A stretch of 64,000 bases of DNA from Thermoplasmata archaeon (GTDB taxonomy: Archaea > Thermoplasmatota > Thermoplasmata > Lutacidiplasmatales > UBA184), in assembly GCA_030041175.1 (NCBI GenBank), contig JASHOK010000006.1:71710-135709 (forward strand), given 5' to 3'. The position numbers and the translations under genes are program-made. The notes under the pieces are model-generated. The model was given only the letters and a program-made list of their open reading frames with translations, did not search any database and was not told the DNA's origin. Shown in pieces: positions 38,841 through 60,899 of the stretch. Each line of letters opens with the position of its first letter. The first letter of the stretch is position 1.

Positions 38841-38843
38841 GCG

Positions 38844-39749: not shown

Positions 39750-41170
39750 GGCTCCGACGGGGCCGGGCGGAGAAGCTCCACCGCCAGCCGTCGCTCGAGG
39801 TCGCCGGCGGGTCCTGCCGGCAGAGAGCGGATTCGCTCCGTGGAGGGAGCGAGCAGCTGAGCCACTAATCTTCGGGTGAGCCGGTCGATGGCGGCCTCCT
39901 GATCCGCATCAAGGGGGCCCAAGAACTTTCGCGCCCGCTCGACCTCGGCCCGCCGGGTCGCCTCCGCGGTGCGATACAACGCATCGATCCAGGGCTCCAG
40001 CAGGAGCCGCTCGATTCGACCCGAGAACCGGTCCGCGAGCTCCTGTACCCGGGCATCCGGCCGCGAGGGGGCCCGAGGGTCTCGGGACCAGGCATGGAGT
40101 TCCTCCAGATCGACGAGCCGGATGCCCGGTCGTTGACGGACGGCGGGATCGATGTTGCGAGGCATGCCTAGATCCACCAAGATCATCGGCCGATCGGGCG
40201 GAAGATCCGCGGCGCGGATTCCGTGGTGGCCGAACTTGGCCGCGGTCACGATCGCGTCCGCGTTCGCCGCTAGGCTCCCCAACCGATCCATGGGCGCCGC
40301 ATCGACGCCGATGTTCCGAAGGAACTCATCGCTCGGAGGCCGGGTGTGGTACACGAGAGTGGCCCGAATATCAGGAGAAAGGCAGCGGGCGACCTGCCGG
40401 CCGACCGTCCCCGACCCCACAACCAGCACCCGCGCCGACGGCGCTGCCAGGAGTGTTCGAAGGTAGGTCACCGCCATCGACGCGATCGACTGCGGGGGAG
40501 CCTCCCCGGAGGCCAGTTCCTGGGCCGTGGATGCGGCTCCCTGCAACACCTCCCGAAGTACGGGCCGCGGATGCCGGCTGAGAACCCGGAAACCGGCGGC
40601 TCGTACCTGCTGGCTGACCTCGAGTTCTCCCCGAGCGAGAGACTCCCGACCGGTCGCGACCCGGAAGAGGTGCCGGACGAGTTCTCGACCGTCGCGGAGC
40701 CGCCAGACACTCTGGGGGCCCGGCAGATCCGCGAGCCAGCGGTCGACACCGGCGGGGTCGCGCAAGAGCAGGACGAGTTCGACCCGGTGGCAGGTGGTTA
40801 GGAGCCCAACCTCCTCGGTGCCGGAGTGGCGCTCAAAGAGCGGGGGGAGTACCTCCAGAGGGAACGACCGAACGATGGATTCTAGCTGGTCCAGCGTGGC
40901 CGTGTCGAAGCTGCACTCGAGTCCGACGAGCGATAGCGGCTGGGTCGGACCCTCGCGTTCGGCCGAGCCGTCCGGCCGGGGGAGGACAAGGCGGTACGCG
41001 GAGAGACGGTTCGCGGGGGTAGATGACACACTCAACCCAGGGCCACGGTTCGAACCGCGGCCGACCTTTATGAGTCGAGGTACGAACCCGGAGCCGGTCC
41101 AGTCCTCCGCCGGAGAAGGTCTCTTCGGCCCCGCGGGGTCGTGGGGTGACTCGGGCCCGGAACGGCTCAA
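39746..41170 (-). CDS. hemA: Glutamyl-tRNA reductase (start uncertain)
   Basis: The sequence reads LLTTCHRVELVLL (catalytic Cys), then ..FRVATGRESL..GE.EV..QVR.., with the NADPH site VLVVGSGTVGRQVA. Alternative in-frame starts are TTG at 41035 and GTG at 41029. The ATG at 41170 adds a Pro/Gly-rich leader of about 45 aa. Confidence 0.85.
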   Translation of the reverse strand: MSRSGPESPHDPAGPKRPSPAEDWTGSGFVPRLIKVGRGSNRGPGLSVSSTPANRLSAYRLVLPRPDGSAEREGPTQPLSLVGLECSFDTATLDQLESIVRSFPLEVLPPLFERHSGTEEVGLLTTCHRVELVLLLRDPAGVDRWLADLPGPQSVWRLRDGRELVRHLFRVATGRESLARGELEVSQQVRAAGFRVLSRHPRPVLREVLQGAASTAQELASGEAPPQSIASMAVTYLRTLLAAPSARVLVVGSGTVGRQVARCLSPDIRATLVYHTRPPSDEFLRNIGVDAAPMDRLGSLAANADAIVTAAKFGHHGIRAADLPPDRPMILVDLGMPRNIDPAVRQRPGIRLVDLEELHAWSRDPRAPSRPDARVQELADRFSGRIERLLLEPWIDALYRTAEATRRAEVERARKFLGPLDADQEAAIDRLTRRLVAQLLAPSTERIRSLPAGPAGDLERRLAVELLRPAPSEP

Positions 41171-41239: not shown

Positions 41240-43891
41240 GTGTCGATGCAACCGGTCGTTCCCTTGCTCAGCGACCTCGCCCCCGACGGATTCGATTTCT
41301 CGGGCCAATACATGGTCGAATTCGATGCGGATTCCTTGTGGTACGAAACGTCCCTGACGATCGCCGCACGGGCGCTCGAGGGAGGATTCAAGACCGAATA
41401 CCACGTCTTCGAACATTTTCCGCGCGAGGCCCGTCAGGCGCTCACCCGCCTCGGCGTCGACGCGGCCCGGCTGGAGGCCGACGGCCTCCTGAACATCTGG
41501 GATAGCTACACCGAAACCACCGAGTTCGAGAAGGCGCGGACCACGGGACCCGGCTGGGAAATGGCGGGTCCAAAACCCCTGGACATCGTCCAGGGCGCGG
41601 CCCGGTGGGTAGAACGCACCAAGAAGGGGTTCGATCCGAGGGAAATGCGGTGGCTGCACCTCGACGACAACACGGGCATCTTTCTCCAGTACAACGACGA
41701 GCAGACCGTAGTGGATCGCTGGCGGACGGCGCTCCTTCCGGCCATACGAGCCCGGGAGTGTCCCCACTTTCTCGCCTTTCCCAAGGGCATCGCCTCGGAG
41801 GCGTTCTACACGAAGTTCGAGGCGCTCTGCGATGGAATCATTGACCTGAAGACGGAGGAGGTCGAGGGTCAGGTCGAGCGATTCCTGCGGATCCGACGGT
41901 TGAAGGGTCGGGTCGCCGATTCGCACTGGCATCGACTGGAAATGCAGGCCGACGGAGCGGTCCGACTCGGCCACCCCCCGTCGCTCGGTCCTGCCCGGCG
42001 GCTCGCGGCTATCATGTTCACCGACATGGTGGGGAGCACCCGCGCGGCGCAGGAAGACGAGGCGAGCGCGCTGGAGCTGATCCGGGCCCAGGAAGAGCTG
42101 CTACGGCCCCGATTCTCGGCGCATCAGGGCCGGGTGATCAAGTCGCTGGGAGACGGGTTTCTCGTCGTGTTCGATAGCGCGCTGCGCGCGGTCCAATGCG
42201 CCGTAGACATCCAGCAGGCGATTCGAAGCCGGAATGCCGGCAGCGGGACTCGGCCGATCCAACTCCGGATCGGGGTGCACCTCGGTGACATCGAGGAACG
42301 CGGAAGTGACGTCTTCGGAGATTCGGTCAACATTGCCGCCCGGATCGAACCGTTGGCCGATCCCGAGGGGATTTGCATCACGGAACCCGTGTTCGGACAG
42401 GTCCAGAACAAGATCACGAACCGTTTCGAGAAGCTGGAGCCTCAGACGCTGAAGGATGTACGGTTTCCGGTCGACGTGTACCGGATGCGCATGTCCTGGG
42501 ACCCGGGACCGGCCCTCGCGGCGACCTGGGACCCCCGCCGGGTCGCTGTCATGCCGCTGGTCAACATGATCCCCGACCCCAGTGAGGCGTACTTCGCGGA
42601 TGGCATGACCGAGGAGATCATCTCCGCGATTTCCAAGGTCCGGGACCTTGCCGTTATCTCGAGAACGTCGGTAACACAGTACAAGAACACCACGAAGAAG
42701 GTTGCCGAAATTGCCCGGGACCTGAACGTGGGCACCCTGTTGGAGGGTAGCGTCCGCAAGGCGGGAAACCGGGTCCGGATCGCGGTCCAACTGATCGACG
42801 CCAATAGCGACAAGCACCTGTGGTCCGAGAACTACGACCGTACGCTCGATGACGTGTTCTCCATCCAGAGCGAGATCGCTCAAGGCGTGGCCTCCCGTCT
42901 GCAGGTCACCCTGCTGGACAGTGACCGAAAGCGGCTCGAAAGGGCACCGACGAGGGACCCGGAAGCCCACGCCTTTTTCCTCAAGGGGCGAGCGGCGCAC
43001 GGGCCCGTGAACGCGATCGAGTTCTACCGGAAGGCCGTCGAGAAGGACCCGCGGTATGCGCTGGCCCACGCGTGGCTGGCGATTGCAACTCTCAACCGAG
43101 GGTTCTCGGACATCGTCCCGGCGCTCGACGCCGCCCGGGAGGCGGAGTCGAGCCTCCAGCAGGCGTTGGTCCTGGATCCGGCCCTGCCAGAAGCGCACGC
43201 GGCGCGGGCCTTCGCGCTGTACCTCCGATGGGACTTCGAAGGCGCCCAGACGGAAGCAAACCGAGCGCTCGAGCTGGACCCGAACTCCCACGAGGCCCTC
43301 GCCTATGGCGCGTTCCTGTTGCGGCTCCCGCGACGATTCGAGGAATCAGAGAAGCTGGTCCGGAGGGCGTTGGAGCTGGACCCCCTGTCGCCGGCAACAC
43401 TCCGCGACGCCGGGACGGATCTACTCTACCTGGGTCGGCCGGAGGAGGCCGCCGCTCTCTTCAAGACGGTCCTCGAGATCGAACCCGAGGAAGCGACCGC
43501 GCGCGGTAACCTCGGACTCGCCTGCGTGCAGCAGGGGCTCTTGGACCAAGGGGTCGCGATGATTCGCGACGGGATCCGGATGTCCGGAGGGATCGAGGTG
43601 GCGACGGCCTGCGACCTGTCCTACGCCCTGCGGAAAGCCGACCGGCTCGGCGAGTTGCGCGAGTTTCTCACCGAGGTTCTCGCGTGGTACACGCAGAGGG
43701 GGTACGGCGCCACTGCGCTCGTCGCCGTCTACGCGAACCTCGGGGAGCTCGACCCGGCGTTCGAGTGGTTCGGACGCGCGTTGGACGAGCATTCCGCCTA
43801 CCTGCCCACCGCCGTCTTCGATTTCGCTTTCGAGAATCTGTGGCCCGACCCTCGGTTTGAGTCCCTCAAGGAACGTCTGGGCCTCCGGTGA
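41240..43891 (+). CDS. Multidomain signalling protein: N-terminal RecA/KaiC-like domain lacking a P-loop, class III adenylate/guanylate cyclase domain, TolB-N-like domain, TPR repeats
   Basis: The cyclase core reads RRLAAIMFTDMVGSTRAAQ..GRVIKSLGDGFLVVF......V.CA..IQ......IQLRIGVHLGDIE..G.DVFGDSVNIAARIE. The next domain reads RVAVMPLVNMIPDPSEAYFADGMTEEIISAISKVRDLAVISRTS..., then LLEGSVRKAGNRVRIAVQLIDA. The C-terminal third has TPR-type A..A...A/L..P repeats. The call for the N-terminal 250 aa is a low-confidence inference. Confidence 0.85.
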   Translation: MSMQPVVPLLSDLAPDGFDFSGQYMVEFDADSLWYETSLTIAARALEGGFKTEYHVFEHFPREARQALTRLGVDAARLEADGLLNIWDSYTETTEFEKARTTGPGWEMAGPKPLDIVQGAARWVERTKKGFDPREMRWLHLDDNTGIFLQYNDEQTVVDRWRTALLPAIRARECPHFLAFPKGIASEAFYTKFEALCDGIIDLKTEEVEGQVERFLRIRRLKGRVADSHWHRLEMQADGAVRLGHPPSLGPARRLAAIMFTDMVGSTRAAQEDEASALELIRAQEELLRPRFSAHQGRVIKSLGDGFLVVFDSALRAVQCAVDIQQAIRSRNAGSGTRPIQLRIGVHLGDIEERGSDVFGDSVNIAARIEPLADPEGICITEPVFGQVQNKITNRFEKLEPQTLKDVRFPVDVYRMRMSWDPGPALAATWDPRRVAVMPLVNMIPDPSEAYFADGMTEEIISAISKVRDLAVISRTSVTQYKNTTKKVAEIARDLNVGTLLEGSVRKAGNRVRIAVQLIDANSDKHLWSENYDRTLDDVFSIQSEIAQGVASRLQVTLLDSDRKRLERAPTRDPEAHAFFLKGRAAHGPVNAIEFYRKAVEKDPRYALAHAWLAIATLNRGFSDIVPALDAAREAESSLQQALVLDPALPEAHAARAFALYLRWDFEGAQTEANRALELDPNSHEALAYGAFLLRLPRRFEESEKLVRRALELDPLSPATLRDAGTDLLYLGRPEEAAALFKTVLEIEPEEATARGNLGLACVQQGLLDQGVAMIRDGIRMSGGIEVATACDLSYALRKADRLGELREFLTEVLAWYTQRGYGATALVAVYANLGELDPAFEWFGRALDEHSAYLPTAVFDFAFENLWPDPRFESLKERLGLR

Positions 43892-44899: not shown

Positions 44900-46828
44900 G
44901 TGCCGACGACCCGACGGCTGGCGGCCATCATGTTCACCGACATGGTGGGGTACACTGCGGCCGCCCAGGTCGACGAAAGGGCCACGCTAGCGCTACGCAA
45001 CGAGCAGGAGGCTATCGTCCGTCCGATGCTCACCAAGCATCAAGGCCGGGTGGTCAAGTCCACCGGCGACGGGCTCCTCGTCGAGTTCGACAGTTCTCTC
45101 AAAGCGACCGAGTGCGCGATCAGCATCCAGCGGAAGCTTCACGAACGCAGCGAGAGGACCACTGCTACCCCTATCAACCTACGGATCGGCATTCACCTAG
45201 GGGATGTAGAACAGCAAGGGGCTGACATTTTCGGTGACGCGGTAAACATCGCCTCTCGAATTCAGCCGGTGGCGGAGCCGGGCGGAATCTGCGTCTCGAA
45301 CGCTGTCCATGAGCAGGTCTGGAACAAGATCTCCGACAAGCTCGAAGAGCTCCCTCCGACGGCACTCAAGGGACTACGGGTTCAGATGGACCTCTACCGG
45401 GTCATCTTGCCGTGGACCGATGAGGCATCCCGATCCGCGACCCCCGGTCCAACCGGAATCGCGGTCCTCCCCTTCACCAACATTAGCCCGGACCCGAAGG
45501 ACGAGTACTTTGCGGACGGACTTACTGAGGAGCTGATCTCCGTACTCTCCCGGCTGCGGGACCTTCGGATTATCGCGCGAACGTCGATAACACCCTACAA
45601 ATCGACCTCGAAGGGTGTCTCCCAGATCGGAGCGGAGCTGGGCGTCTCGTCCATTTTGGAGGGGAGCGTGCGGAAATCCGGGAGCCGTTTGCGGATCACG
45701 GTCCAACTAATCGACGTCGGTTCCCAGGGGCATGTCTGGGCGCACACATACGACCGGGAGCTCGACGACATCTTCGCGGTCCAAACCGACATCGCCATGC
45801 AAGTAATGGATGCCCTAAAGCTCGAATTGGCAGGAATTGAGAGGACCCGCCTTCACGCTAGACGTCCGGCGCGGAAGGACTCCTACCTGGCCTACTTGAA
45901 AGGGCGAACTCTGGCTCACGACAGATCCGAAGCGGGCCTGAAGGCGGCGAAGGAACAGTTCGAAATTGCGATCCGCCTAGACCCCGAAAACGCGTCGGCC
46001 TATTCGGGGCTCTCCGATACACTTTACCATCTGGTGACCTACGGCTACACGGGCCCGAATCGGGCCGAGGACATCGCCCTCGGCCGCACCTACGCCGCCC
46101 GGGCGGTCGAACTAGACGCGGACCTCGCGGAAGCCCATGCGTCCCTCGGGAGTGTCTATTGGTACGATTTCCGACACGCTGACGCAGAAAGGGAGTTCTT
46201 GCTTGCGCTATCGCTCAACCCGAGCTATCCCCAGGCCCACACGTGGTACGCACTCCTACTGGAAGAGCTCGGACGACCTGAGGAGGCTCTTCAGGAATTC
46301 GCGCTGGCCGAGCAGGCGGATCCGCTCTCACTGCCTCTCCTCGTGTCGACCGCCCAGCTGCTCAGATGGCTCGGTCGGCTAGACGAAGCTCAAACGAGGA
46401 TCGAAAAGCTCTGGAATGCGAAGACGACACTTTGGGCGGGCCGGACGCAGATGTTCGAGTACTACATGGCCCGATCCGACCCCGAGCGAGCACTGAAGGT
46501 GCTGGATCAGACTAAGGAGGCCAGGCCGGGAGATCCGCGATTGCTGGCCAGTTACGCGGACTACTACGCGCGGACCGGGCAAACGAATCGAGCGATCGAA
46601 CTGCTTCGGGAGTTCGAGACGCAGACCGAAGGCCTCCCGTACCGAGAAGTGACCCTAGCGGACGTGTACACATCTCTAGGTAAGCTCGATGAGGTCTTCC
46701 GCTGGCTCGAAAAGGCGCTCGAGGCCCACTGGCTCGATGTCCGGAACTGGCGACTAAATCCGAACGCCGCCCGCGTGCGGGCTGACCCGAGATTCCAAGC
46801 CCTCCTGAAAAGGATGAAGCTCGCCTGA
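44900..46828 (+). CDS. Class III adenylate/guanylate cyclase, TolB-N-like domain, TPR protein (paralog of 41240..43891 without the N-terminal domain)
   Basis: The sequence reads RRLAAIMFTDMVGYTAAAQ..GRVVKSTGDGLLVEF......ECA..IQ.....INLRIGIHLGDVE..G.DIFGDAVNIASRIQ, then IAVLPFTNISPDPKDEYFADGLTEELISVLSRLRDLRIIARTS, then LEGSVRKSGSRLRITVQLIDV, followed by TPR repeats. GTG start. Confidence 0.88.
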   Translation: MPTTRRLAAIMFTDMVGYTAAAQVDERATLALRNEQEAIVRPMLTKHQGRVVKSTGDGLLVEFDSSLKATECAISIQRKLHERSERTTATPINLRIGIHLGDVEQQGADIFGDAVNIASRIQPVAEPGGICVSNAVHEQVWNKISDKLEELPPTALKGLRVQMDLYRVILPWTDEASRSATPGPTGIAVLPFTNISPDPKDEYFADGLTEELISVLSRLRDLRIIARTSITPYKSTSKGVSQIGAELGVSSILEGSVRKSGSRLRITVQLIDVGSQGHVWAHTYDRELDDIFAVQTDIAMQVMDALKLELAGIERTRLHARRPARKDSYLAYLKGRTLAHDRSEAGLKAAKEQFEIAIRLDPENASAYSGLSDTLYHLVTYGYTGPNRAEDIALGRTYAARAVELDADLAEAHASLGSVYWYDFRHADAEREFLLALSLNPSYPQAHTWYALLLEELGRPEEALQEFALAEQADPLSLPLLVSTAQLLRWLGRLDEAQTRIEKLWNAKTTLWAGRTQMFEYYMARSDPERALKVLDQTKEARPGDPRLLASYADYYARTGQTNRAIELLREFETQTEGLPYREVTLADVYTSLGKLDEVFRWLEKALEAHWLDVRNWRLNPNAARVRADPRFQALLKRMKLA

Positions 46829-47859: not shown

Positions 47860-49410
47860 GTGGCCGACGTGCCTGCTGCCGGCGCCCGGCCCGCTCCGTC
47901 CGTCGGTGCCCGTTCCACGGCCGCCCAACTCCGGGCGCAGGGCGTTCCCCCTCAGACCCCGGGCGAGCTGTTCCGCGCGGAGATCCTCCGGCGGGTCGAC
48001 GAGACCCGCCGGCACGGCTTCTCTCACTCCGAATCCGTTGCCGCGTTGTTTCCCCACACGGTCCTCCCCAGCGAAACCTACGAAGACTTGGTCGCCGCCC
48101 TGGTCTCCGGGGCGCATCTGCTCTTCTTCGGTCCTTCCGGAGCCGGAAAGACCTCCCTCGCGAAGGAGCTGTGGGACCTGTTCCCGAAGGACCTCTGGGT
48201 CGTGGAGGGCTGCCCGGTCGGCGACGACCCGCTGAGCCTCGTGACCAAGGAGGCGGCCGAACGGCTGCCGCCGTGTCCGATCTGCCGCCGCCGGTTCTCG
48301 CCGGGCGGTGAGGTCGCGGCCTTCGACCCCGCGCTCATCGACGCGAGCAAAGTGCCGGCAGTCCGGGTCCGTCGCCGGGAGGGGTACGGCTTCGCCCGCC
48401 TTCAGGGATCGAGCGAGGTCTTCCCGGATCACCTCACGGGCAACGTCAATCTCCGGAAACTCGAGGAGATTGGCGACCCGATGAGTCCGCTCGTGCTGGA
48501 GCCCGGAAAGCTCCTTCAGGCGAACCGGGGCCTGCTGCTGGTCGACGAGATCGGGAAGCTGCCGCTTGGAACACAGAACGTGCTGTTGCAGTCGCTCCAG
48601 GAGGGCACGGTCACTCCCTCGAAGTCCCGGGAGAGCTTTCCGGCCCTCTTCGTGGCCATCTGCACGTCGAACCTGTCGGACCTGGACAACATCAACGACC
48701 CGCTCTCCGACCGGCTGACGAGCTTGCACGTCGGCTTCAACAAGCGACACTCCGCGAACCGCCAGATCGTGGACCGGGCCCGGCGCGACGCCCCCAGTGG
48801 ATACGTGCCCGAGATCCTCCTCGACGCGGGCGTCCGCATGATCGAGGCCTGGCGGCTTCGGATGTCGGACGAGGACCCCGACATGGGAGAGGTCGGATCC
48901 AACCGCACGCTGCTCGATGTGATCGCCCGGGCGGAGGCCTACGGGACGCTCGGTACTCGGGCGGTCCCCACGCTGGACGACCTCAAGGCCGGCATCCTCC
49001 ACGCCATGCGGGGCCGGATCCGGGCGCGGAGCGGGGATTCGTTCCAACAGAACTCGAAGCGGGTGCAGGACTTCCTGGACCAGCACCTCGACGACTCGCT
49101 CAAGGACAGCGCGAAGGTCTACTGGTGCCGGTACTTCCGGGACGTGCTCAAGTCGAAGAATGACGACGCCCAGGCGCTGATCGGTGAGGGCCGTCGGCTG
49201 CTACCGGACGCGGCGCTGCAGAACGAGGCGAAAGGGAAGGCCGAGATGTTCCCGCGCTTCCACGCGTTCGTGACCTACGTGCAGGAGCGAGAGCACCCGT
49301 CCGCGTCCGCGGGCCCATGGCCCGCGGCGGTGGCCGAGTTCGGCCTCGTCGAGAAGTACTCGCTCTTCAGCTGCGCCGAGGAGCCGACGGATGACGTCGC
49401 CGCCGGCTGA
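47860..49410 (+). CDS. AAA+ ATPase, Mg-chelatase ChlI/BchI-like, with a Cys4 zinc-ribbon-like insert
   Basis: Walker A is LLFFGPSGAGKTSLAKEL and Walker B is RGLLLVDEIGKLP. QNVLLQSLQEGTVT......FPA.F.AICTSN......I.DPL.DRL parallels the ChlI sensor/arginine-finger region. An insert, EGCPVGDD...(20 aa)..PPCPICRRRF, lies between Walker A and Walker B. Confidence 0.75.
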   Translation: MADVPAAGARPAPSVGARSTAAQLRAQGVPPQTPGELFRAEILRRVDETRRHGFSHSESVAALFPHTVLPSETYEDLVAALVSGAHLLFFGPSGAGKTSLAKELWDLFPKDLWVVEGCPVGDDPLSLVTKEAAERLPPCPICRRRFSPGGEVAAFDPALIDASKVPAVRVRRREGYGFARLQGSSEVFPDHLTGNVNLRKLEEIGDPMSPLVLEPGKLLQANRGLLLVDEIGKLPLGTQNVLLQSLQEGTVTPSKSRESFPALFVAICTSNLSDLDNINDPLSDRLTSLHVGFNKRHSANRQIVDRARRDAPSGYVPEILLDAGVRMIEAWRLRMSDEDPDMGEVGSNRTLLDVIARAEAYGTLGTRAVPTLDDLKAGILHAMRGRIRARSGDSFQQNSKRVQDFLDQHLDDSLKDSAKVYWCRYFRDVLKSKNDDAQALIGEGRRLLPDAALQNEAKGKAEMFPRFHAFVTYVQEREHPSASAGPWPAAVAEFGLVEKYSLFSCAEEPTDDVAAG

Positions 49411-51285: not shown

Positions 51286-51717
51286 ATGGATACTCCCCAG
51301 CAAGCCCAACTGCGCGAACACATGGCGGAACTTCGACGGGCGACTCGGGGGCTCGGCCGGGACTTCGCGATCGAGTTCGACAACCTCGACGAGAAGATCG
51401 CCCGCCTCGGGACCCTGACGGCGAAGGAGGCCAAGTATGCCATGGAGGATATCGAAGACGACTTGACGGCCCTCGGTCATTCGATCGGCACCGAGATGCG
51501 CCGCCTGCCGGGCCAGGTCGCCGGCGGGCTCACCAGCGCTGGGAACGCCATCGCCTCGGGCGCGGCCCGGGCCGGTGCCGCCACCGCCGATGCGCTGACG
51601 GCCGCGGGCCACGCGACGAAGGAAGGCACGAAGAACGCGTTCGCGTCGATGGCCGGCGTTCGGCGCACTCCGATGAAGGAGTGGACCGCGCCGGGGTCCG
51701 GCGAGACTGAGCAGTAG
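51286..51717 (+). CDS. Hypothetical all-helical Ala-rich protein
   Basis: 143 aa starting at the internal ATG (MDTPQQAQLREHMAELRR..). The composition is amphipathic and repetitive (phasin/apolipoprotein-like). No domain recognised. Confidence 0.5.
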   Translation: MDTPQQAQLREHMAELRRATRGLGRDFAIEFDNLDEKIARLGTLTAKEAKYAMEDIEDDLTALGHSIGTEMRRLPGQVAGGLTSAGNAIASGAARAGAATADALTAAGHATKEGTKNAFASMAGVRRTPMKEWTAPGSGETEQ

Positions 51718-53446: not shown

Positions 53447-54316
53447 TTACTGGCGTCGGTCCGGGGGATGAGTCTTGCGCCGGAGTTGCCGCGGCCCAAT
53501 GGGAACTCGGGCCAGCTCGGTCTCGACCCGGCGCCGGGCTACGGCCAGATACTGCTCGTCCACGTCAAACCCGACGAAGGGCAGGCCGAGTCTCGCCGCC
53601 GCGATCGCCGAGGCGCCGAGGCCGAGGAAGGGGTCGACGGCCTGGCGGATCCGGTCCACTCCGTGCAGCCGGAAGCAGCGCTCGGGAAGCTCCGGGGGGA
53701 AGGTCGCCGGATGCGGCCGGTCCGTCGCCCGCCGCCGGATGGTGGCATAGGGCAGGAACCAGGTGTTCCCCCGGCACCGCAGGTCCCGACGAGCGCCTCC
53801 CCAGCGGGCGACGTTGCTCTTGTCCTGGTACGGGACCCCGACCGCCAGTCGGTCGAGTCGGACGTCGCCCCGGTGGCTGAAGTGGAAGATGTACTCCTGA
53901 GCGCCGTGCAGGAACCGGGACGACGGAACGGGCTTGTAGTGCCCGACCGCGATGTCCCCGGTGAGGTGCGATGTGGCGCCCGCCAGCGATCGCTCGATCG
54001 CGATCGACTTCACCCAGTGGATCACGTTCTGTAGGACGAACCGGGACCGTACCTCCTGGGCCACGTCGAGCGGCAGCCACGGGTCGGTCGGCGAGCCGCC
54101 GACGTTCAGGAAGAACGAGCCATCGGGCGCGAGAGCGGTGCGCACGGCATCGGCGACCCGCCCGATCCACGCGAGATACTCCGCCCTCGGGCGCCGGTCC
54201 GCGTACCGGTGGTACGCCATGCCCCGGTTGTAGGGCGGCGAGGTGACGACCACGTCGACGCTGCCGGCCGGCAGCCGCCGCGGCAGGCCCGGGAGGCAGT
54301 CCTCCTGCCAGAGCAC
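53447..54316 (-). CDS. Site-specific DNA methyltransferase, beta-class N4-C/N6-A (orphan)
   Basis: The sequence reads VLWQEDCLPGLPRRLPAGSVDVVVTSPPYN (motif IV), then ..FFLNVG.., ..HPATFPPELPERCFRLHG and AVDPFLGLGASAIAAARLGLPFVGFDVD (motif I). The start is set at the in-frame GTG at 54316. The 760-aa track ORF is this gene fused to an alternate frame of the ATPase gene. Confidence 0.85.
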   Translation of the reverse strand: MLWQEDCLPGLPRRLPAGSVDVVVTSPPYNRGMAYHRYADRRPRAEYLAWIGRVADAVRTALAPDGSFFLNVGGSPTDPWLPLDVAQEVRSRFVLQNVIHWVKSIAIERSLAGATSHLTGDIAVGHYKPVPSSRFLHGAQEYIFHFSHRGDVRLDRLAVGVPYQDKSNVARWGGARRDLRCRGNTWFLPYATIRRRATDRPHPATFPPELPERCFRLHGVDRIRQAVDPFLGLGASAIAAARLGLPFVGFDVDEQYLAVARRRVETELARVPIGPRQLRRKTHPPDRRQ

Positions 54317-54417
54317 GAGGGAGCCCCCGGACCGTTCCGTCAGACGGGCGAACGGTGGATCTGCAGAACGGGACGTGCCAAGCCCTCCGGTGCCGGAGGG
54401 CGAGACGGACCGGAACT

Positions 54418-56214
54418 TTACGCCGCCGCTGCCGCCGGTGCCTTCGCGGCCGCCGCCTTGGATCGCTCCAGGTCGGCGCGCGCCTCGGCCGCGGCGTTCG
54501 CGGGGTCCTTGTAGTACGATGCGACGACCCGGCCCACGTCCCGGTGGGTGAACGGCTGCGCGCGCGTGGCGAGCGAGTCCTTCCACTTGAGATACTCGAG
54601 CATGTCGGCGCGTCGGCGGACCTCCCGCTCCATCTCCTTCATCGTCCAGTTCTTGGAGACCGCCACTCGCTCGTAGATGTAGGAGTGGCCGCTGTAGAGG
54701 AAGGTGTCGTCCGCCGGGTTCCACGAGTAGACCGAGTTCGTGATGAGCTCGTTCGTCTCGGGGTCGAGACCGACGATCTCCGTCAGCGACTGCACCCGGC
54801 GGGTCATCTTCGTGCCGACCTTCACCTGACGCTGGAGCAGGACCAGGTTGAGCGCGCTCACGAGCGACCGCGGGAGCGAGATCGGGGGATTCTCCATCCG
54901 GTGGACCATCGCCGCCACGGACTCCGCGTGGAACGTCGTGTAGCAGGTCTTGCCGGTCGCCATCGCCTGGAAGACGATGAACGCCTCGGCGCCTCGGACC
55001 TCTCCGACCATCAGGTACTGGGGCCGCTGCCGGAGGGCGGCGGCCAGCAGGTCGAACATGTCGATCTCCCCCGGGGCCTTGCCGGTCAGCTGGTTCTTCG
55101 CCCCGAAGCCGCTCCGCGTCAGCGCCGGGATCCAGTTCTCGTGCGGCAGGTTGAGCTCCCGCGTGTCCTCGATGCTGACGATCTTCATCTGCGGCGGAAT
55201 GAACAGGAGCGTGGCGTTCAGCGTGGTCGTCTTGCCCGAGGCCGTGCCTCCGCAGACCATCATCGACTGGCCGTTCTCGATGGCGATCCAGAGATACGCC
55301 ATCATCTCGGGGCTCATCGTGCGGAATTTGATCAGGTCGACCGGCGTGAAGGGATTGTCCCGGAACCGACGGATCGTGAACGTGCTGCCGCGCTTGGTGA
55401 CGTGGGTTCCGAGCGTCGCTTGCAGCCGGGAGCCGTCCGGCACGGTCGCGTCCAGCACCGGGCTTGCGACCGAGATCGACTTGCCGGACCGCTGGGCCAG
55501 CCAGACCACGTACTCGTCGAGCTCCTTCGACGACGTGAACTTGAGATTCGACCGGATCGAGCCGTAGACCCGGTGGTAGATGTAGAGGGGAATGCCGACG
55601 CCATCGCAGGAAATGTCCTCGACCTGGCTGTCGGTCATCGGCACGTCGACAACGCCGTAACCGAGGAAATCCCGTTCCAGGTAGTAGACGAGCCGGCCCT
55701 TGGTGGCCGGACTGGGGGAGAGCTGCCACTTCAGGAGCTGGTCGTCGACCATCCGGCGGAGCTCCCGGCGCCGGGCATCGTTCTCGGCCTCGGGCAGCGG
55801 CTGGAACTCCTCGATCAGCCCGACCCGGAGCTTGTCGAGCAGGTCTCGCTCGAGCGCCGCCAGCGGCGGCTCGATGACCTCGTACAGGTGCTCGTTGTAC
55901 AGGTTGTTGAACGTGATCCGGACGTACGAGAAACCCTCCCGGATCGGGGCGATATCGAGTTCCGTGAGGTTCGCGTCATCCAGCGGAGGAATCGGCGTCA
56001 CATCGCCGACCGCGCCCTGGCCGGAGATGCCGAGCCGGGCCAGCTTGACCGACCGGGGTTCCTCGCGGCCCCGTCGCATGCGGGCGCCGATCCGGAGGAA
56101 CGGGGAGAAGCTGCTCTTCGGCTGCGACGACCCCGCGCCCTTGGCGGCCTTCCGAGGACGCGAGGGCGTCCCGGTTCCGCCCGAGTCCGTATCCGCTACG
56201 CCGGCATCGGCCAT
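54418..56214 (-). CDS. Type IV filament assembly ATPase, FlaI/ArlI/PilB (GspE) family, copy 1
   Basis: Walker A is MMVCGGTASGKTTTLNA. Other boxes are KIVSIEDTRELNLPHENWIP and LMVGEVRGAEAF, with TFHA as the His box. The archaeal-type N-terminal domain reads Y.EVIEPPL...E..LL. An Ala-rich C-terminal tail is present. Confidence 0.92.
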   Translation of the reverse strand: MADAGVADTDSGGTGTPSRPRKAAKGAGSSQPKSSFSPFLRIGARMRRGREEPRSVKLARLGISGQGAVGDVTPIPPLDDANLTELDIAPIREGFSYVRITFNNLYNEHLYEVIEPPLAALERDLLDKLRVGLIEEFQPLPEAENDARRRELRRMVDDQLLKWQLSPSPATKGRLVYYLERDFLGYGVVDVPMTDSQVEDISCDGVGIPLYIYHRVYGSIRSNLKFTSSKELDEYVVWLAQRSGKSISVASPVLDATVPDGSRLQATLGTHVTKRGSTFTIRRFRDNPFTPVDLIKFRTMSPEMMAYLWIAIENGQSMMVCGGTASGKTTTLNATLLFIPPQMKIVSIEDTRELNLPHENWIPALTRSGFGAKNQLTGKAPGEIDMFDLLAAALRQRPQYLMVGEVRGAEAFIVFQAMATGKTCYTTFHAESVAAMVHRMENPPISLPRSLVSALNLVLLQRQVKVGTKMTRRVQSLTEIVGLDPETNELITNSVYSWNPADDTFLYSGHSYIYERVAVSKNWTMKEMEREVRRRADMLEYLKWKDSLATRAQPFTHRDVGRVVASYYKDPANAAAEARADLERSKAAAAKAPAAAAA

Positions 56215-56224
56215 GGAGACCCTC

Positions 56225-57244
56225 TTACGAGGTCACCCCCGGGACGACCAGGTTGGGCACGAAGTATCGCATGAAGAGCCACCCGGAGGCCAGCATGATG
56301 GTGGCGTGCTGGAGTCCCTCGGAGATTCGGCCGTTGATGATGACGCCCGACATGATCCCGTCCCCGATCGCGTGCACGATGACGGCCACCATGAACGCGA
56401 GGAAGAGCTCCGGGATGGCACTGAAGTTGAGGGAGATGGCGGACGCTCCCCCGGCACTGGTGCCGGAGTTCGCGATGCTGCTGCCCGCGGTGATCATCTG
56501 CGGCAGGAAGACTGCCGCCATGATGTAGATCGTGACGAGGAACACGTAGAACGAGATGTAGATGACCGTGAGATAGGTCAGCATCGTGATCTGGCGCTCC
56601 TGGGTCGTGATCTGCACGTCCCGGGTGTCGCGCGCGACCATCGACAGAACATCGGCCACGTTGCCGCCGGCCTCGTTGGCCTTGATGATGATCGAGACGG
56701 TCCGAGCGACGAGCGGTGTCTGCACCCGGTCCTTGAACAGGGAGAGCGCCGTGGAGACCGGGACCCCCCATTCGAGCTGGCTCGCCATCTTCTTGATCTC
56801 GCCCGTCAGAAGGTCGTAGCGGCCCTTGCTCGCCACGATGATGGCGTCCGGCAGCGTCATGCCGAACCGGCCGGCTTCGGCCACATCGCGGAGGAAGTCC
56901 GGGAGGCGGCTCTCGATCCGGCTGATGCGTCGGTACTGCGCGCTCGCGAGGAATCCGTATGGGCCGATGATGACCAGCGTGCCCATCACGGCGAAGTCGA
57001 TGGCGGGGTTCGCCCCCACGGGCTCACCGGGTCGGACAAGGATCGATAGGATCCCGAGGTAGTTGAGCGCCGCGATCGCGTACAGCACGAACCCGATCGG
57101 CAGGCAGACGTAGAGCGCGAGCCGCTCCGAGGCGATCGTCGGGCGCACCTTCTCGGTGCCGAGCGTGACCGAGGCGCCGAGGGTTCGAGGGGCGGTGACC
57201 GTTGTCGTTGCCGTCGCGGTTGCCATCTTAGACCTCCGAAGCAA
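56225..57244 (-). CDS. Type II secretion F-domain membrane protein (half-size FlaJ/TadC-like platform subunit)
   Basis: 339 aa: RLPDFLRDVAEAGRFGMTLPDAIIVASKGRYDLLTGEIKKMASQLEWGVPVSTALSLF, flanked by TM helices. It contains one T2SSF domain rather than the two found in full-length FlaJ. Confidence 0.85.
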   Translation of the reverse strand: MLRRSKMATATATTTVTAPRTLGASVTLGTEKVRPTIASERLALYVCLPIGFVLYAIAALNYLGILSILVRPGEPVGANPAIDFAVMGTLVIIGPYGFLASAQYRRISRIESRLPDFLRDVAEAGRFGMTLPDAIIVASKGRYDLLTGEIKKMASQLEWGVPVSTALSLFKDRVQTPLVARTVSIIIKANEAGGNVADVLSMVARDTRDVQITTQERQITMLTYLTVIYISFYVFLVTIYIMAAVFLPQMITAGSSIANSGTSAGGASAISLNFSAIPELFLAFMVAVIVHAIGDGIMSGVIINGRISEGLQHATIMLASGWLFMRYFVPNLVVPGVTS

Positions 57245-58238
57245 GACCCTGCATGTAGAGGATGAAGACGAACTGGAAGGCGGGGATCATCGCCCCGATG
57301 ATGCCCCAGAGGATCTCGAGGAGACTGCCGCCCCCGCTGCCGATGATCGCAAAGATGGCGATCACAATGACCAGGAACAGGGGAAACGCCACGACCACTG
57401 TCACGAACGTTTCGGCGAGGAGACCCATCGTCTCCGTCCGGCGCATCACATCCAGCTTGTTCTCCCGCTGGTACTGTTCGGCCTTGAGCAGGAAGTACGG
57501 CTTGAGCTGGCCGCCCGAAGTGGCGGTCGTCACGACGCCCTGAAGGAAGTCCTGGAACCGCTTCGAGGGCGTGCGGTTCGCTCCGATGCGGATCGCACTC
57601 AGGATATCGACACCGAGCAGTTCGGTGTCGCGAGTGATCCAGGCAGCCTCCTCGGCCACCGCGCCGTAGATCTTCTCCTGGGCCAGGTCCCGGAAGATCT
57701 GGTCGATGTTGACGTCCGCCGACGCCATGGCGCTGACGAAGCTCATCGCCGCGCCAATCCGCCGGTCGATCTCGACCCCCCGGCGCTTGGCATTCGAGGC
57801 CGGGGTCGACTTGAGCAGCAGGTTGGTGAGGCCGGTGCCTCCGACCGGGATCAGGACGCCGACGAGCACCGCGAAGACCAGGGTTGTGAGGCCCGTGCCC
57901 GAGAGATAGATCAGGACGCCGAGAACCACTCCCGCCACGGCCAGCGCCGCGGCGGTGACGAACGTCGCGGCCATGACCCACGCCAGGTACTCTTCCGCTC
58001 GCAGGCGCATGTGGGCCTTGAGGAGATTCTCCTCGAGGAGCGCTTCCGCCGGGCCCATCTGGACCCGGTCCTTGAACCGGGTCCAGGCCCATTGCTGGAA
58101 CGGCGTCAGCGGGGCGCGCGACGGTTGCTCGCCACGCTTGACGCGAACCGTCCGGACCTCGGTGATATCGTCCGGTCCCTGGGTCCGAGCCCGGGCGGCA
58201 CGTGCGGCGGTAGGACTGGCCACGTCCGTCGCCGGCAT
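57228..58238 (-). CDS. Type II secretion F-domain membrane protein (half-size FlaJ/TadB-like platform subunit)
   Basis: 336 aa: IDRRIGAAMSFVSAMASADVNIDQIFRDLAQEKIYGAVAEEAAWITRDTELLGVDILSAIRIGA, flanked by TM helices. It overlaps the next gene by 17 nt, and its start codon shares a single base (58238) with the upstream ATPase stop codon. Confidence 0.85.
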   Translation of the reverse strand: MPATDVASPTAARAARARTQGPDDITEVRTVRVKRGEQPSRAPLTPFQQWAWTRFKDRVQMGPAEALLEENLLKAHMRLRAEEYLAWVMAATFVTAAALAVAGVVLGVLIYLSGTGLTTLVFAVLVGVLIPVGGTGLTNLLLKSTPASNAKRRGVEIDRRIGAAMSFVSAMASADVNIDQIFRDLAQEKIYGAVAEEAAWITRDTELLGVDILSAIRIGANRTPSKRFQDFLQGVVTTATSGGQLKPYFLLKAEQYQRENKLDVMRRTETMGLLAETFVTVVVAFPLFLVIVIAIFAIIGSGGGSLLEILWGIIGAMIPAFQFVFILYMQGLASEV

Positions 58239-59884
58239 CAGCTGGCCGCCTCTCCCGCCGGCTGGACCTTCTCCATTACGGTCTTCGGGTCCTTGTAGTA
58301 GTCAGTGACCATCTTCCAGAGTGCCCGGTAGTCGTCCATCTTCTGGTGGACGAGGAAGCGCACGACGAGGACGCGCCGCTGGAACTCGGCTTCCATCTCC
58401 TCGTGGGTGTAATTCTTGAGTTCCATGATCTTGTCGAAGAGGAACGAGTGGCCCTTGAACACGAACTTGTCCGTGGCCGGGTCCCACTCGTAGACCGTGT
58501 TGGTGATGAGCTCGTTCGTTTCGGGCTCGAACCCGACGATCTCGAGCACCTGCTTCAGCCGCCGGACCACGCCCTTCTCGGTCCGGGCCTGGATCTGAAT
58601 CACGACGTTGTTGAGCGCCGAGAGGAGAATCCGGGGGGTATTGATCGGGGGATTCTCGAGCCGGTTGACCATCGACTTCACGCTGTCCGCGTGCATCGTC
58701 GAGTACGTCGTGTGGCCGGTGGCCATTGCCTGGAACATCGTGTACGTCTCTTTCCCACGGACCTCTCCGACGATGATGTAGTTCGGCCGCTGCCGCAGCG
58801 CCGCCCGGACCAGGTCGAACATATCGACCTCGCCCGCGGCCTTTCCGTCCGGGCCGCGGTCACCGGTACCGCTGCGTGTGGCGCCCGGGATCCAGTTCTC
58901 GTGCGGGAGGTTGACCTCGCGGGTATCCTCGATGCTGACGATCTTGGCGGTGGGGGGGATGAATAGCGCGATAGCGTTGAGCGTGCTGGTCTTGCCCGCG
59001 GCGGGGCCGCCGCAGATCATCATCGACTCCCCCTGTTCGGCCGCGAGCCAGAAGTAGGCCACCATCTCCTCGTTGGCGCTGCCGGCGTTGACCAGGTCCA
59101 CCGGGGTCCACGGCCGCTCCTTGAACCGGCGGATCGTGAACGTTCCACCGCGGGTCGTCACCTCGTGCGCGTAGCTCGCCTGCACCCGGTGTCCTTCGGG
59201 TGTCGTTCCGTCCAGGATCGGGTTCGAGACCGAGACCGACTTCGAGCACCGCTGGCCGAGCTGGACGATGAAGGAGTTCAGTTGATCCTCGTCCGGGAAG
59301 ACGATGTTCGTCTTGACCGACTCGAATCGACCGTGAAAGACGAAGAGCGGGACCTCGACTCCGTCGCAGGAGATGTCCTCGATGTTCGTGTCCAGGATCA
59401 GCGTGTCGACGGGGCCGTAGCCGATGAAGTCGCGCTGGATGTAGTAGATGATGCGCTCGGTCGACAGCGGACTCAGCTGGATGCCCCGGGTCTTGAGGAA
59501 CTCCTCGACGACGCCGCGGAGGTAGGCCTTCTTGTCGCCCGAGGTCATCGAGGCGACCTCGGCGCCGATAATCTTCCCCATCGTCTCTTTGAGATGGTTC
59601 AGGAGCTCTCGTTCGTGGGTCGACAACTGGGGCTCGATGGCCTCGTAGATGTACTCCTTCGTTCGGTCGTTGTAGGTGACCCGAGAGTAGGAGTACGGCG
59701 GATTGATCGGCCGGATCTCGATGACCTTCGCTCCCTCGGCGGGGAGCGCCGGCATGGCGGTGATGAAGGTGCCCGGCAGGTCCGTGGTCGGGAGGCCTTC
59801 CTGGTCGACCCCCGCAGGGGGCTCGGGCTTTTCGCCGCTGGCGTTGCGCGGGATCTTGACGCGATAGGAGGCGAGACTCGCCAC
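58238..59884 (-). CDS. Type IV filament ATPase, FlaI/ArlI/PilB (GspE) family, copy 2
   Basis: Walker A is MMICGGPAAGKTSTLNA. Other boxes are KIVSIEDTREVNLPHENWIP, IIVGEVRGKETY and TMHA. Start set at GTG 59884, 2 nt after the pilin gene stop. The 617-aa track ORF is an upstream extension into the pilin gene. Confidence 0.9.
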   Translation of the reverse strand: MASLASYRVKIPRNASGEKPEPPAGVDQEGLPTTDLPGTFITAMPALPAEGAKVIEIRPINPPYSYSRVTYNDRTKEYIYEAIEPQLSTHERELLNHLKETMGKIIGAEVASMTSGDKKAYLRGVVEEFLKTRGIQLSPLSTERIIYYIQRDFIGYGPVDTLILDTNIEDISCDGVEVPLFVFHGRFESVKTNIVFPDEDQLNSFIVQLGQRCSKSVSVSNPILDGTTPEGHRVQASYAHEVTTRGGTFTIRRFKERPWTPVDLVNAGSANEEMVAYFWLAAEQGESMMICGGPAAGKTSTLNAIALFIPPTAKIVSIEDTREVNLPHENWIPGATRSGTGDRGPDGKAAGEVDMFDLVRAALRQRPNYIIVGEVRGKETYTMFQAMATGHTTYSTMHADSVKSMVNRLENPPINTPRILLSALNNVVIQIQARTEKGVVRRLKQVLEIVGFEPETNELITNTVYEWDPATDKFVFKGHSFLFDKIMELKNYTHEEMEAEFQRRVLVVRFLVHQKMDDYRALWKMVTDYYKDPKTVMEKVQPAGEAAS

Positions 59885-59886
59885 GG

Positions 59887-60831
59887 TCAGACCACCCCGA
59901 TACCGGCGGACAGCTGGAAGTTCGCCAGGAGGAGGGTCACCGTGGCAATGTTCGTAATCTCTACGTCGACGGTCTTGGCCTCGCCCCCGACGGACACACA
60001 CCCGGAGGTATCGACCGACGTGACGCTCATCTGGCTCGCCGTGACGTTGGCGGCAGAGCGCGACGAGAGGAAGAAGTTGGTCCAGGCGCACGGATAGTGG
60101 GTCGTCACGTTGAGGAAGAAGGAGGAGACAGCCGCCGTGTTGTTGTTCCGGAGGGTTTGCGTGTCGCCGAGCAGGCTGGAATAGGCCTGGATCGTTCCGG
60201 GCGAGGTCAGCCGGGTCGCGTTGCCGTACATCTGGGTCAGCGAGAGGGTCAGGCTGAGCGACGTACCCATCTTCTGGAGAGCAAAGATCGGTGGGTAGAC
60301 GATCAGCTGGTTCGTGTCACTCTCGTATTGGATGACGGCTCCGTCCTCCATCTCAAAGGTGGTCGGAGTGTAGTATCGGTTCGGGAGCGTGAGCGTGAGG
60401 GTCCCGAGCGACCCCCCGAAGGTCTGGTGGTAGAGGGTATTGGCGGTAAGGAAGTTGGGGATCGTGAGGCTGACGGACGCTCCCGGCGTACGGGGAAGGA
60501 ACGCCAGCGTTCCGGTGGTAGGTACCGAGAGCAGGGGCACCGACTGCGAACTCATCGTGAAGGGCGTGGACAGGACGGGCGGGCCTCCCGTGGCGGCCTG
60601 GAGCTGCATGTTGGACTGGAGCTCGGCCATCGAGGTGGCGATTCCAGCGGTGAAATCCGACTCGTTGTCCGACATCCAGAGAGGCATGTAGAAGGTCAGG
60701 AACGTTCCGAACAACGACAGGAAGACAAGTAGGGAGAGCAGGGTTCCTACGACCGCCACCAGGCCCCGACGGCTCCTCCGGAGCCGTCGAATGCGAGCGC
60801 GGTGCGCCCGAGTACGAACGGAAACCCCCAT
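59887..60831 (-). CDS. Archaeal type IV pilin-like protein (class III signal peptide), large 314 aa
   Basis: The N-terminus reads RRLRRSRRG-LVAVVGTLLSLLVFLSLFGTFLTFYM: a basic leader, a G at -1 and a hydrophobic helix typical of prepilin-peptidase (PibD/EppA) substrates. The remainder is Ser/Thr-rich with several N-x-S/T sequons. Confidence 0.75.
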   Translation of the reverse strand: MGVSVRTRAHRARIRRLRRSRRGLVAVVGTLLSLLVFLSLFGTFLTFYMPLWMSDNESDFTAGIATSMAELQSNMQLQAATGGPPVLSTPFTMSSQSVPLLSVPTTGTLAFLPRTPGASVSLTIPNFLTANTLYHQTFGGSLGTLTLTLPNRYYTPTTFEMEDGAVIQYESDTNQLIVYPPIFALQKMGTSLSLTLSLTQMYGNATRLTSPGTIQAYSSLLGDTQTLRNNNTAAVSSFFLNVTTHYPCAWTNFFLSSRSAANVTASQMSVTSVDTSGCVSVGGEAKTVDVEITNIATVTLLLANFQLSAGIGVV

Positions 60832-60891: not shown

Positions 60892-60899
60892 TATAAATA
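60892..60899. promoter_or_regulatory. TATAAATA element in the divergent intergenic region between the pilin operon (-) and the ACT gene (+)
   Basis: It is the only AT-rich octamer in 60832-60985. It lies about 60 nt upstream of the pilin ATG and about 90 nt upstream of the ACT ATG. It could act as a TATA box in either direction. Confidence 0.35.

Follow-up and report, generated by a model that had tools for sequence, protein, structure and literature searches.

The window analysed here, a 64-kb stretch (64,000 nucleotides) of contig JASHOK010000006.1 from a Thermoplasmata archaeon, contains on its minus strand a type IV filament locus of five consecutive genes. These encode a large protein that bears a class III signal peptide, two paralogous ATPases, and a membrane platform that is divided between two genes (Table 1). 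The original prediction, an annotation based on the letters of this DNA, had proposed this five-gene order together with its coordinates, and all five open reading frames (ORFs) are found at those positions in the ORF list of the window. The junctions between the genes are as described there or tighter. The GTG start codon of ATPase 2 follows the stop codon of the pilin-like gene after 2 nucleotides (nt), as had been claimed (TGA-cc-GTG); the ATPase 2 stop overlaps the start of the first platform gene (TGATG), and 10 nt separate the stop of the second platform gene from the start of ATPase 1. At the junction between the platform genes the first stop is followed by an ATG (TAA-g-ATG), and initiation at this codon (57226) instead of the TTG at 57244 would yield a second platform protein of 333 amino acids (aa).

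Upstream of the first gene is an AT-only octamer, within a region of 65–68% G+C, that represents a candidate promoter for the operon. Based on this TATA-like box and the tight junctions, we infer that the five genes constitute a single operon with translational coupling. The G+C content of the locus, 64–67%, is similar to that of the remainder of the window, and the locus is therefore not a compositional island. From the TATA-like box to the stop of ATPase 1 the operon comprises only five genes, none of them of the AapX type, and none of the five proteins carries an Fe-S or AapX-like domain in Pfam and NCBIfam scans. A perfect 9-bp hairpin resides directly past the ATPase 1 stop.

Table 1. Features of the type IV filament locus and of other genes in the 64-kb window (positions are those of the window)
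Feature	Position	Strand	Match or motif	Remark
TATA-like box	60892..60899	-	TATTTATA	Candidate operon promoter, read from sequence; 61 nt upstream of first-gene ATG
Pilin-like protein, 314 aa	59887..60831	-	Class III signal peptide	First gene of operon
ATPase 2, 548 aa	58238..59884	-	T2SSE, E = 9e-32 (Pfam)	Length from GTG start
Platform N half, 336 aa	57228..58238	-	Single T2SSF domain, E = 3e-15 (Pfam)	
Platform C half, 339 aa	56225..57244	-	Single T2SSF domain, E = 6e-18 (Pfam)	Length from TTG (57244)
ATPase 1, 598 aa	54418..56214	-	T2SSE, E = 1.5e-33 (Pfam)	
Hairpin, perfect, 9 bp	54382-54401		GCCCTCCGG-CA-CCGGAGGGC	
N6_N4 (SPPY-motif) DNA methyltransferase	53447 to about 54316-54400	-	N6_N4_Mtase (Pfam)	~100 nt after ATPase 1
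Conserved protein, ~143 aa	about 51290-51717	+		No family
VWA-domain protein, 603 aa	49391-51202	+	VWA	
MoxR/PrkA-like AAA ATPase	47860-49410	+	MoxR/PrkA-like AAA	
Cyclase/TPR protein	44900-46828	+	Adenylate/guanylate cyclase domain, long TPR array	
Cyclase/TPR protein	41240-43891	+	Adenylate/guanylate cyclase domain, long TPR array	Weak KaiC-like N-terminal domain too
Tetrapyrrole biosynthesis cluster	33984-41170	-		
Thermopsin-family acid protease, 1089 aa	29641-32910	-	C-terminal PEGA domain	

The original prediction regarded the two ATPases as clear paralogs of the assembly type, and both their domains and their solved relatives bear this out. They share 48% identity over 502 aa (E = 6e-180), and the sequence strings that had been quoted as common to both are indeed present. 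Both proteins are full length with an identical domain layout, and ATPase 1 has an additional basic N-terminal stretch of about 50–70 aa. The closest solved relative of either paralog is afGspE of Archaeoglobus fulgidus (2OAP; 394 bits for ATPase 1 and 413 bits for ATPase 2), followed by FlaI (303 and 280 bits) and CpaF (137 and 153 bits). GspE, PilB and PilT score merely about 30 bits against both (PilT/PilB about 30 bits for ATPase 1, PilT about 36 bits for ATPase 2). In NCBIfam, the equivalog for the archaellum motor FlaI is matched at 409 and 411 bits, short of its cut-off of 550; TadA-family scores are 138–141 bits against a cut-off of 373, and PilT-family scores about 28–43 bits against 319. 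The PilB3_C domain scores 26.6 bits on ATPase 2, barely below its cut-off of 27, and reaches 32.8 bits in one ortholog. The contrast between the afGspE, FlaI and CpaF scores and those of PilB and PilT, together with the sub-cut-off score for the FlaI equivalog, indicates that both ATPases are assembly-type motors and that neither is the archaellum motor nor PilT-like. Judged by these matches, both belong to the archaeal assembly-type (afGspE/FlaI-like) family of hexameric motors.

A degenerate duplicate was among the outcomes that the original prediction named as refuting it, and the catalytic residues of each copy were compared. The Walker A (GKT), Asp box (ED), Walker B (GE), His box and conserved arginines are invariant among 64 orthologs of ATPase 1 and 61 orthologs of ATPase 2, so neither copy is degenerate and this explanation can be set aside.

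The platform was predicted to be split into two genes, and this is corroborated by the single T2SSF domain in each product and by the way in which the two products divide full-length platform profiles between them. In the NCBIfam profiles for ArlJ and UpsF, the first gene covers the N-terminal part and the second the C-terminal part: the N half matches positions 5–219 of a 555-position ArlJ profile, and the C half matches positions 212–445 of 465 in an ArlJ profile and 282–477 of 484 in UpsF. Together they therefore resemble one platform cut in two, and the two halves are proposed to be jointly equivalent to a single ArlJ/AapF-type platform. The two genes show no detectable similarity to each other by BLASTP. 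The labels that had been attached to them, TadB-like for the first and TadC-like for the second, are swapped if anything, because Denise et al. (2019; PMC6668835) take the N half to be TadC and the C half to be TadB. Contrary to what had been presumed, a divided platform is common in archaea; it is known from Epd-like systems, from clades 1 and 2 of Makarova et al. and from others (PMC4858521; PMC6668835; a preprint of 2026 with a survey of type IV filament systems in archaea). In Epd and Tad the split arose through gene fission (Denise et al., 2019; PMC6668835).

Similar comparisons identify the closest described machine. In Cuniculiplasma divulgatum, the CdiP operon contains genes for a pair of ATPases, CdiPE1 and CdiPE2, and for two platform proteins, CdiPFa and CdiPFb (Gaines et al., 2025, ISME J; PMC12448462). 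With the CdiPFa/b sequence printed in the supplement of that paper, BLASTP aligns the N half with CdiPFa at 33% identity over 297 aa (E = 2e-38), the N half terminating where CdiPFa does, and the C half with the obtainable part of CdiPFb at 34% identity over 176 aa (E = 1e-30). These matches make the locus of the window a further member of the CdiP kind, and by extension from the platform halves its ATPases are probably orthologous to CdiPE1 and CdiPE2. The correspondence includes two FlaI/AapE-family ATPase genes, a platform in separate N-half and C-half genes, an operon that contains neither AapX nor the major pilin, and membership of the same phylum. The window differs in its origin from an uncultured, high-G+C soil-type Thermoplasmata lineage, in its gene order (ATPase 2, N half, C half, ATPase 1) and in the class III-signal gene of roughly 300 aa at the head of the operon, a gene absent from the published description of the C. 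divulgatum operon (PMC12448462).

At its N terminus (RRSRRG|LVAVVGTLLSLLVF) this 314-aa protein conforms to the class III signal pattern of archaea, and no other ORF of the window is of the class III type. Among 61 orthologs, 54 have a related motif, (R/D/E)G|V(A/V)xx(V/I)GT, with near variants in six of the remaining seven, and the pilin-like gene is the immediate upstream neighbor of ATPase 2 in 51 of 76 loci (see below). The public gene call for this protein is 290 aa long and begins 24 codons late, such that the basic n-region and the RRG motif are lost; both the n-region and the RRG cleavage motif are kept in orthologs of 314–328 aa. An AlphaFold2 model built with 44 homologs (mean predicted local distance difference test score, pLDDT, 86.8) displays a helix spanning residues 8–81 and a beta-rich head. 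The protein matches no Pfam or NCBIfam family, its model has no significant Foldseek match in the PDB, its homologs are nearly all annotated as hypothetical, and two of its orthologs show a weak match to DUF7289 (Pfam). In euryarchaeal clade 2, the signature minor pilin arCOG02911 is a FlaFind-positive, all-beta protein of 250–550 aa (PMC4858521). The 314-aa protein fits this description and is a candidate minor pilin or assembly component.

Neither a PilA-type small pilin, nor a homolog of CdiPB, the major pilin of C. divulgatum, nor a Peptidase_A24 prepilin peptidase is encoded within the 64-kb window. It follows that the small pilins and the prepilin peptidase are presumably encoded elsewhere in the genome, as they are in C. 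divulgatum and Haloferax. In euryarchaeal systems it is usual for pilins to be supplied in trans (PMC4858521).

Also close to the locus are the euryarchaeal clade 2 type IV pili of Makarova et al., which include PilB3/PilC3 of Haloferax volcanii, afGspE of A. fulgidus and the two-ATPase locus of Aciduliprofundum boonei. Shared with this clade are the proximity of the window ATPases to afGspE, the PilB3_C tail on ATPase 2 and its orthologs, and two platform genes, loci of the clade often having two tadC-like genes. In this clade PilA-type pilins are encoded in trans, as is presumed for the window, and a large FlaFind-positive all-beta minor pilin is a signature, for which the 314-aa protein is a candidate. 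Most loci of the clade have one ATPase, whereas here a second ATPase is fixed and conserved. Two single-T2SSF platform genes beside an ATPase are also a feature of Tad (TadA/CpaF, TadB, TadC) and Epd (EpdL, EpdJ, EpdK) (PMC6668835). However, Tad and Epd combine one secretion ATPase with an unrelated second ATPase (TadZ or FlaH-like), the window operon contains neither, the TadA score is under its cut-off, and the match to CpaF (137–153 bits) is far weaker than those to afGspE or FlaI; membership of a Tad- or Epd-like system was thus rejected. An archaellum was rejected as well, given the missed FlaI equivalog cut-off and the lack of the archaellum gene set: archaellins, ArlH, ArlF/G, ArlC/D/E and ArlX are all absent from the operon genes and the scanned flanking genes. 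The bacterial PilB/PilT families, and BfpD/BfpF with them, offer the parallel of two paralogous hexameric motors of one superfamily serving one platform, as is proposed for the window. The window ATPases nevertheless fall outside both families, with scores of about 30 bits, no short PilT-type copy and the same domain layout in both proteins, which excludes membership there. A bindosome (Bas) assignment likewise fails, BasE scoring 172–202 bits against a cut-off of 1000 and BasF 37 bits against 1300.

Taken together, the domains, the division of the platform profiles, the afGspE/FlaI/CpaF relatives, the CdiPFa and CdiPFb matches, and the class III signal and position of the first gene make it highly probable that the five genes are the core operon of an archaeal machine for type IV pilus assembly, of the Thermoplasmatota type and the CdiP kind. 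The premise of the original prediction that the layout was previously undescribed is not borne out. Makarova et al. (2016; PMC4858521) reported two distinct ATPases in one locus of A. boonei, and two tadC-like genes in many euryarchaeal loci of clades 1 and 2. In the C. divulgatum study (Gaines et al., 2025; PMC12448462), the sole experimental work on a two-ATPase operon, the structure of the pilus was solved, and the second ATPase is termed enigmatic, the arrangement itself unique. The two-ATPase, split-platform layout is therefore already in the literature, even though the 2026 preprint still gives the ATPase as single-copy per system. Of the earlier proviso that such loci might prove to be an already described, common class of known function, description holds and commonness holds within one phylum, but a known function does not come with them.

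The breadth of the layout is apparent from a genome scan that used one genome per species, gave at least 594 relatives and returned 76 loci; matches were confirmed with ATPase 1 as query, and the loci were searched by tblastn with the window proteins. In 57 of the 76 loci the genes run ATPase 2, N half, C half, ATPase 1, and the loci without this order are mostly incomplete contigs. The loci span soil Thermoplasmata, Methanomassiliicoccales, Methanomethylophilaceae, the DHVE2/Aciduliprofundum group, Halarchaeoplasmatales and Thermoplasmatales, all within Thermoplasmatota, and two DHVE2 loci (L029 and L034) have the same five-gene order as the window. CdiPFa/b-like genes are present in 68–71 of the 76 loci, and wherever both halves occur they are separate ORFs (61 of 61). 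Each ATPase has its own close relatives, in more than 100 clusters that derive nearly entirely from Thermoplasmata metagenome-assembled genomes, with identities of 77–94% in the ATPase 1 ortholog group and 76–94% in that of ATPase 2, and many ATPase 1/ATPase 2 pairs are located on contigs of equal length. Across Thermoplasmatota lineages each paralog remains 57–94% identical to its counterparts, compared with about 50% between the two paralogs. When the ORFs of the flanks were clustered, no additional gene proved to be conserved beside the cluster across lineages, and the neighbors were lineage-limited.

The separation of the two paralogs is also visible in phylogeny. In a neighbor-joining tree of 250 core sequences, the orthologs of ATPase 1 and of ATPase 2 form separate clades (bootstrap 83 and 87, respectively). 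The alignment contains 115 columns conserved in both groups, 61 conserved in ATPase 1 only, 44 in ATPase 2 only, and 8 fixed differences. Profiles built from each group discriminate between members of the two groups by about 200 bits both ways, all 127 other relatives fall between -60 and +64 bits in profile difference, and by this test no sampled outside sequence belongs to either group. The duplication therefore looks as old as the sampled Thermoplasmatota, although not demonstrably older, and it may weakly be placed within or at the base of this phylum; a conceivable alternative would be an older euryarchaeal duplication, with ATPase 2 and ATPase 1 as its PilB3 and PilB4 branches. A recent tandem duplication, raised as a way in which the pair could prove trivial, is ruled out by the separate ortholog groups and the conserved gene order; the pair is ancient. 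Among the nearest representatives of clusters formed at 50% identity (150 sequences, P0355–P0504), none of which belongs to the ATPase 1 or ATPase 2 groups, many are 700–1500 aa long with long N-terminal extensions before the ATPase core, one being an 862-aa representative from HGW-Thermoplasmata-1.

Mostly the ATPase 1 state is seen at 16 diagnostic columns in afGspE and in two relatives that have a single ATPase (L060 and L074), and ATPase 2 shows derived states there. Outgroups also lean to the ATPase 1 profile. From the diagnostic columns, ATPase 1 looks ancestral-like and ATPase 2 looks like the derived paralog. In one lineage (L032, L044, L045 and L061), sister to loci of canonical order (L046 and L047), ATPase 2 lies outside the operon yet is retained, with 82–89% identity to its canonical-order relatives. 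In L032 it is found 6 kb away on the other strand, and the solitary ATPase 2 of L061 is 89% identical to the L032 copy. Retention of the relocated gene speaks for two motors that can be separated and for a need for ATPase 2. The only two-ATPase locus among the 76 labelled Thermoplasmatales, L052 (L052:8473-11503), has a different order: pilin-like gene, ATPase, ATPase, N half, C half. Its ATPases resemble each other (66% identity) more closely than any ortholog and carry mosaic diagnostic residues. This suggests either partial homogenization by gene conversion or a separate duplication in the Thermoplasmatales, an order that also contains Cuniculiplasma.

The invariant catalytic motifs of both copies, the paralog-specific identities, the separate clades, the 61 and 44 columns conserved in one paralog only, the 8 fixed differences and the maintained gene order make it likely that both ATPases are active and that they are not redundant. 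We favor, by a modest measure, the reading in which the locus is a CdiP-kind pilus assembly operon with two non-redundant motors, ATPase 1 polymerizing the filament and ATPase 2 being the derived one. A single transcript initiated at the TATA-like box would encode the class III-signal protein, ATPase 2, the N half, the C half and ATPase 1. The two halves would assemble into one membrane platform, PilA-type pilins and prepilin peptidase would be supplied in trans, and both ATPases would act on the one platform as hexameric motors. ATPase 1 would keep the ancestral filament-polymerizing role, and ATPase 2 would dock in turn as its own hexamer and drive a different step, conceivably disassembly and retraction, or else insertion of the large minor pilin at initiation. 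The assignment of separate hexamers, with polymerization falling to ATPase 1 and another step to ATPase 2, is offered tentatively, at somewhat below even likelihood.

Several points weigh against this reading. The locus of the window is known from sequence alone, the deep nodes of the neighbor-joining tree are unresolved (bootstrap below 40), the ancestral and derived states were called from 16 columns and few outgroups, and nothing in the layout of either paralog marks it as a retraction type. Because ATPase 1 served as the query in the genome scan, loci without ATPase 1 are under-sampled. In the Tad system of Caulobacter, a single ATPase performs both extension and retraction. The same is true of the Aap pilus of Sulfolobus (PMC11178785), and since single ATPases suffice in both cases a second motor is not required for retraction. 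In addition, no twitching was seen in C. divulgatum, which weakens a retraction role, and in that organism the assignment of the observed pilus to the two-ATPase operon was itself inferred (PMC12448462).

It is possible, though somewhat doubtful, that ATPase 2 evolved independently into an antagonist or a partner of the ancestral assembly motor, being either the first dedicated archaeal retraction ATPase, a convergent analog of PilT, or one half of a hetero-hexameric motor that matches the split platform and would be the first known from the type IV filament superfamily. The first of these alternatives is a convergent extension/retraction pair, evolved inside the archaeal assembly-type family, of which one paralog polymerizes and the other depolymerizes, like PilB and PilT of bacteria; since it is a sub-case of the reading with two non-redundant motors, the probabilities of the two overlap. 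Two non-redundant, motif-intact motors on one platform are what such a pair would require, ATPase 2 can lie apart from the operon, which is the usual situation of pilT, and archaea are without PilT homologs (PMC11178785). Against these points, neither ATPase resembles PilT (about 30–36 bits), the two share one full-length layout, twitching was not seen in an organism with a homologous operon (PMC12448462), and single archaeal and Tad motors handle both jobs. We regard it as fairly unlikely.

The second alternative, that ATPases 1 and 2 alternate in a mixed ring that matches the heteromeric platform, accords with the strict one-to-one match in number between ATPases and platform halves, two of each, with their translational coupling, with the conserved, mirror-like succession of ATPase 2, N half, C half and ATPase 1, and with the retention of arginine fingers and catalytic residues in both proteins. 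Against it, asymmetric motif loss, a trait of many heteromeric rings, is not seen here. A mixed ring is also difficult to reconcile with the retention of ATPase 2 when it lies outside the operon or alone, and with the differing gene order of the Thermoplasmatales-type L052. Mixed rings are not known from this ATPase superfamily. Finally, RNA-seq levels of the two platform halves are uneven in C. divulgatum (PMC12448462). This arrangement seems unlikely.

Functionally overlapping duplicates, kept for dosage, for differing conditions or for different pilin sets, would suit the L052 copies, with their 66% identity and mosaic diagnostic states. The pair is retained across several Thermoplasmatota lineages with paralog-specific columns, only a single platform is present, and separate regulation is unlikely within one tightly coupled operon, so we consider this account improbable. 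Of the three options originally put forward for the pair (an extension/retraction pair, a hetero-oligomeric motor or a secretion system), secretion or surface-protein assembly of a T2SS-like (type II secretion system) or bindosome-like kind is the least likely, and very improbable: the one large class III-signal protein in an operon without a small major pilin and the weak matches to the bindosome proteins BasE and BasF might suggest it, but these matches lie far below their cut-offs, in-trans pilins are usual in euryarchaeal systems (PMC4858521), and abundant pili, made of a pilin that is encoded remotely, accompany the homologous machine of C. divulgatum (PMC12448462).

Downstream of ATPase 1 the next gene encodes a DNA methyltransferase, as had been noted. 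It adjoins the operon solely in the window's own clade of loci and is therefore probably a neighbor rather than a pilus component. The same restriction to this clade applies to an ACT-domain gene and to the VWA and MoxR-like pair. The MoxR-like, VWA and ~143-aa genes run convergently toward the pilus operon, and their synteny is confined to the clade. In Thaumarchaeota, pairs of VWA and MoxR/GvpN proteins have been put forward as candidate regulators of type IV pili (Makarova et al.; PMC4858521). The two cyclase/TPR genes reside 8–15 kb from the operon. Farther away, the thermopsin-family protease is consistent with an acid-adapted Thermoplasmatota organism, and the tetrapyrrole cluster comprises uroporphyrinogen decarboxylase, a class III aminotransferase that is probably glutamate-1-semialdehyde aminomutase, ALA dehydratase and glutamyl-tRNA reductase. 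In another clade of loci (L014–L026 and relatives), the operon is flanked by a conserved 150-aa protein, with a roughly 670-aa zinc-ribbon/helix-hairpin-helix-like protein upstream and, downstream on the opposite strand, a roughly 880-aa protein that is possibly an adhesin or surface protein; none of these three is encoded in the window.

The prevailing view assigns one multifunctional ATPase to each archaeal type IV filament. The window adds no new kind of system, and its layout is not new; rather, it is the breadth of the two-ATPase, split-platform operon, a stable feature across several Thermoplasmatota lineages, that has been under-appreciated. The two ATPases fall into separately conserved ortholog groups, both with intact catalytic motifs, which argues that the second motor does something that selection keeps. 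The question of why these archaea have two motors is now well posed, with cultured relatives in Cuniculiplasma, Aciduliprofundum and Methanomassiliicoccus.

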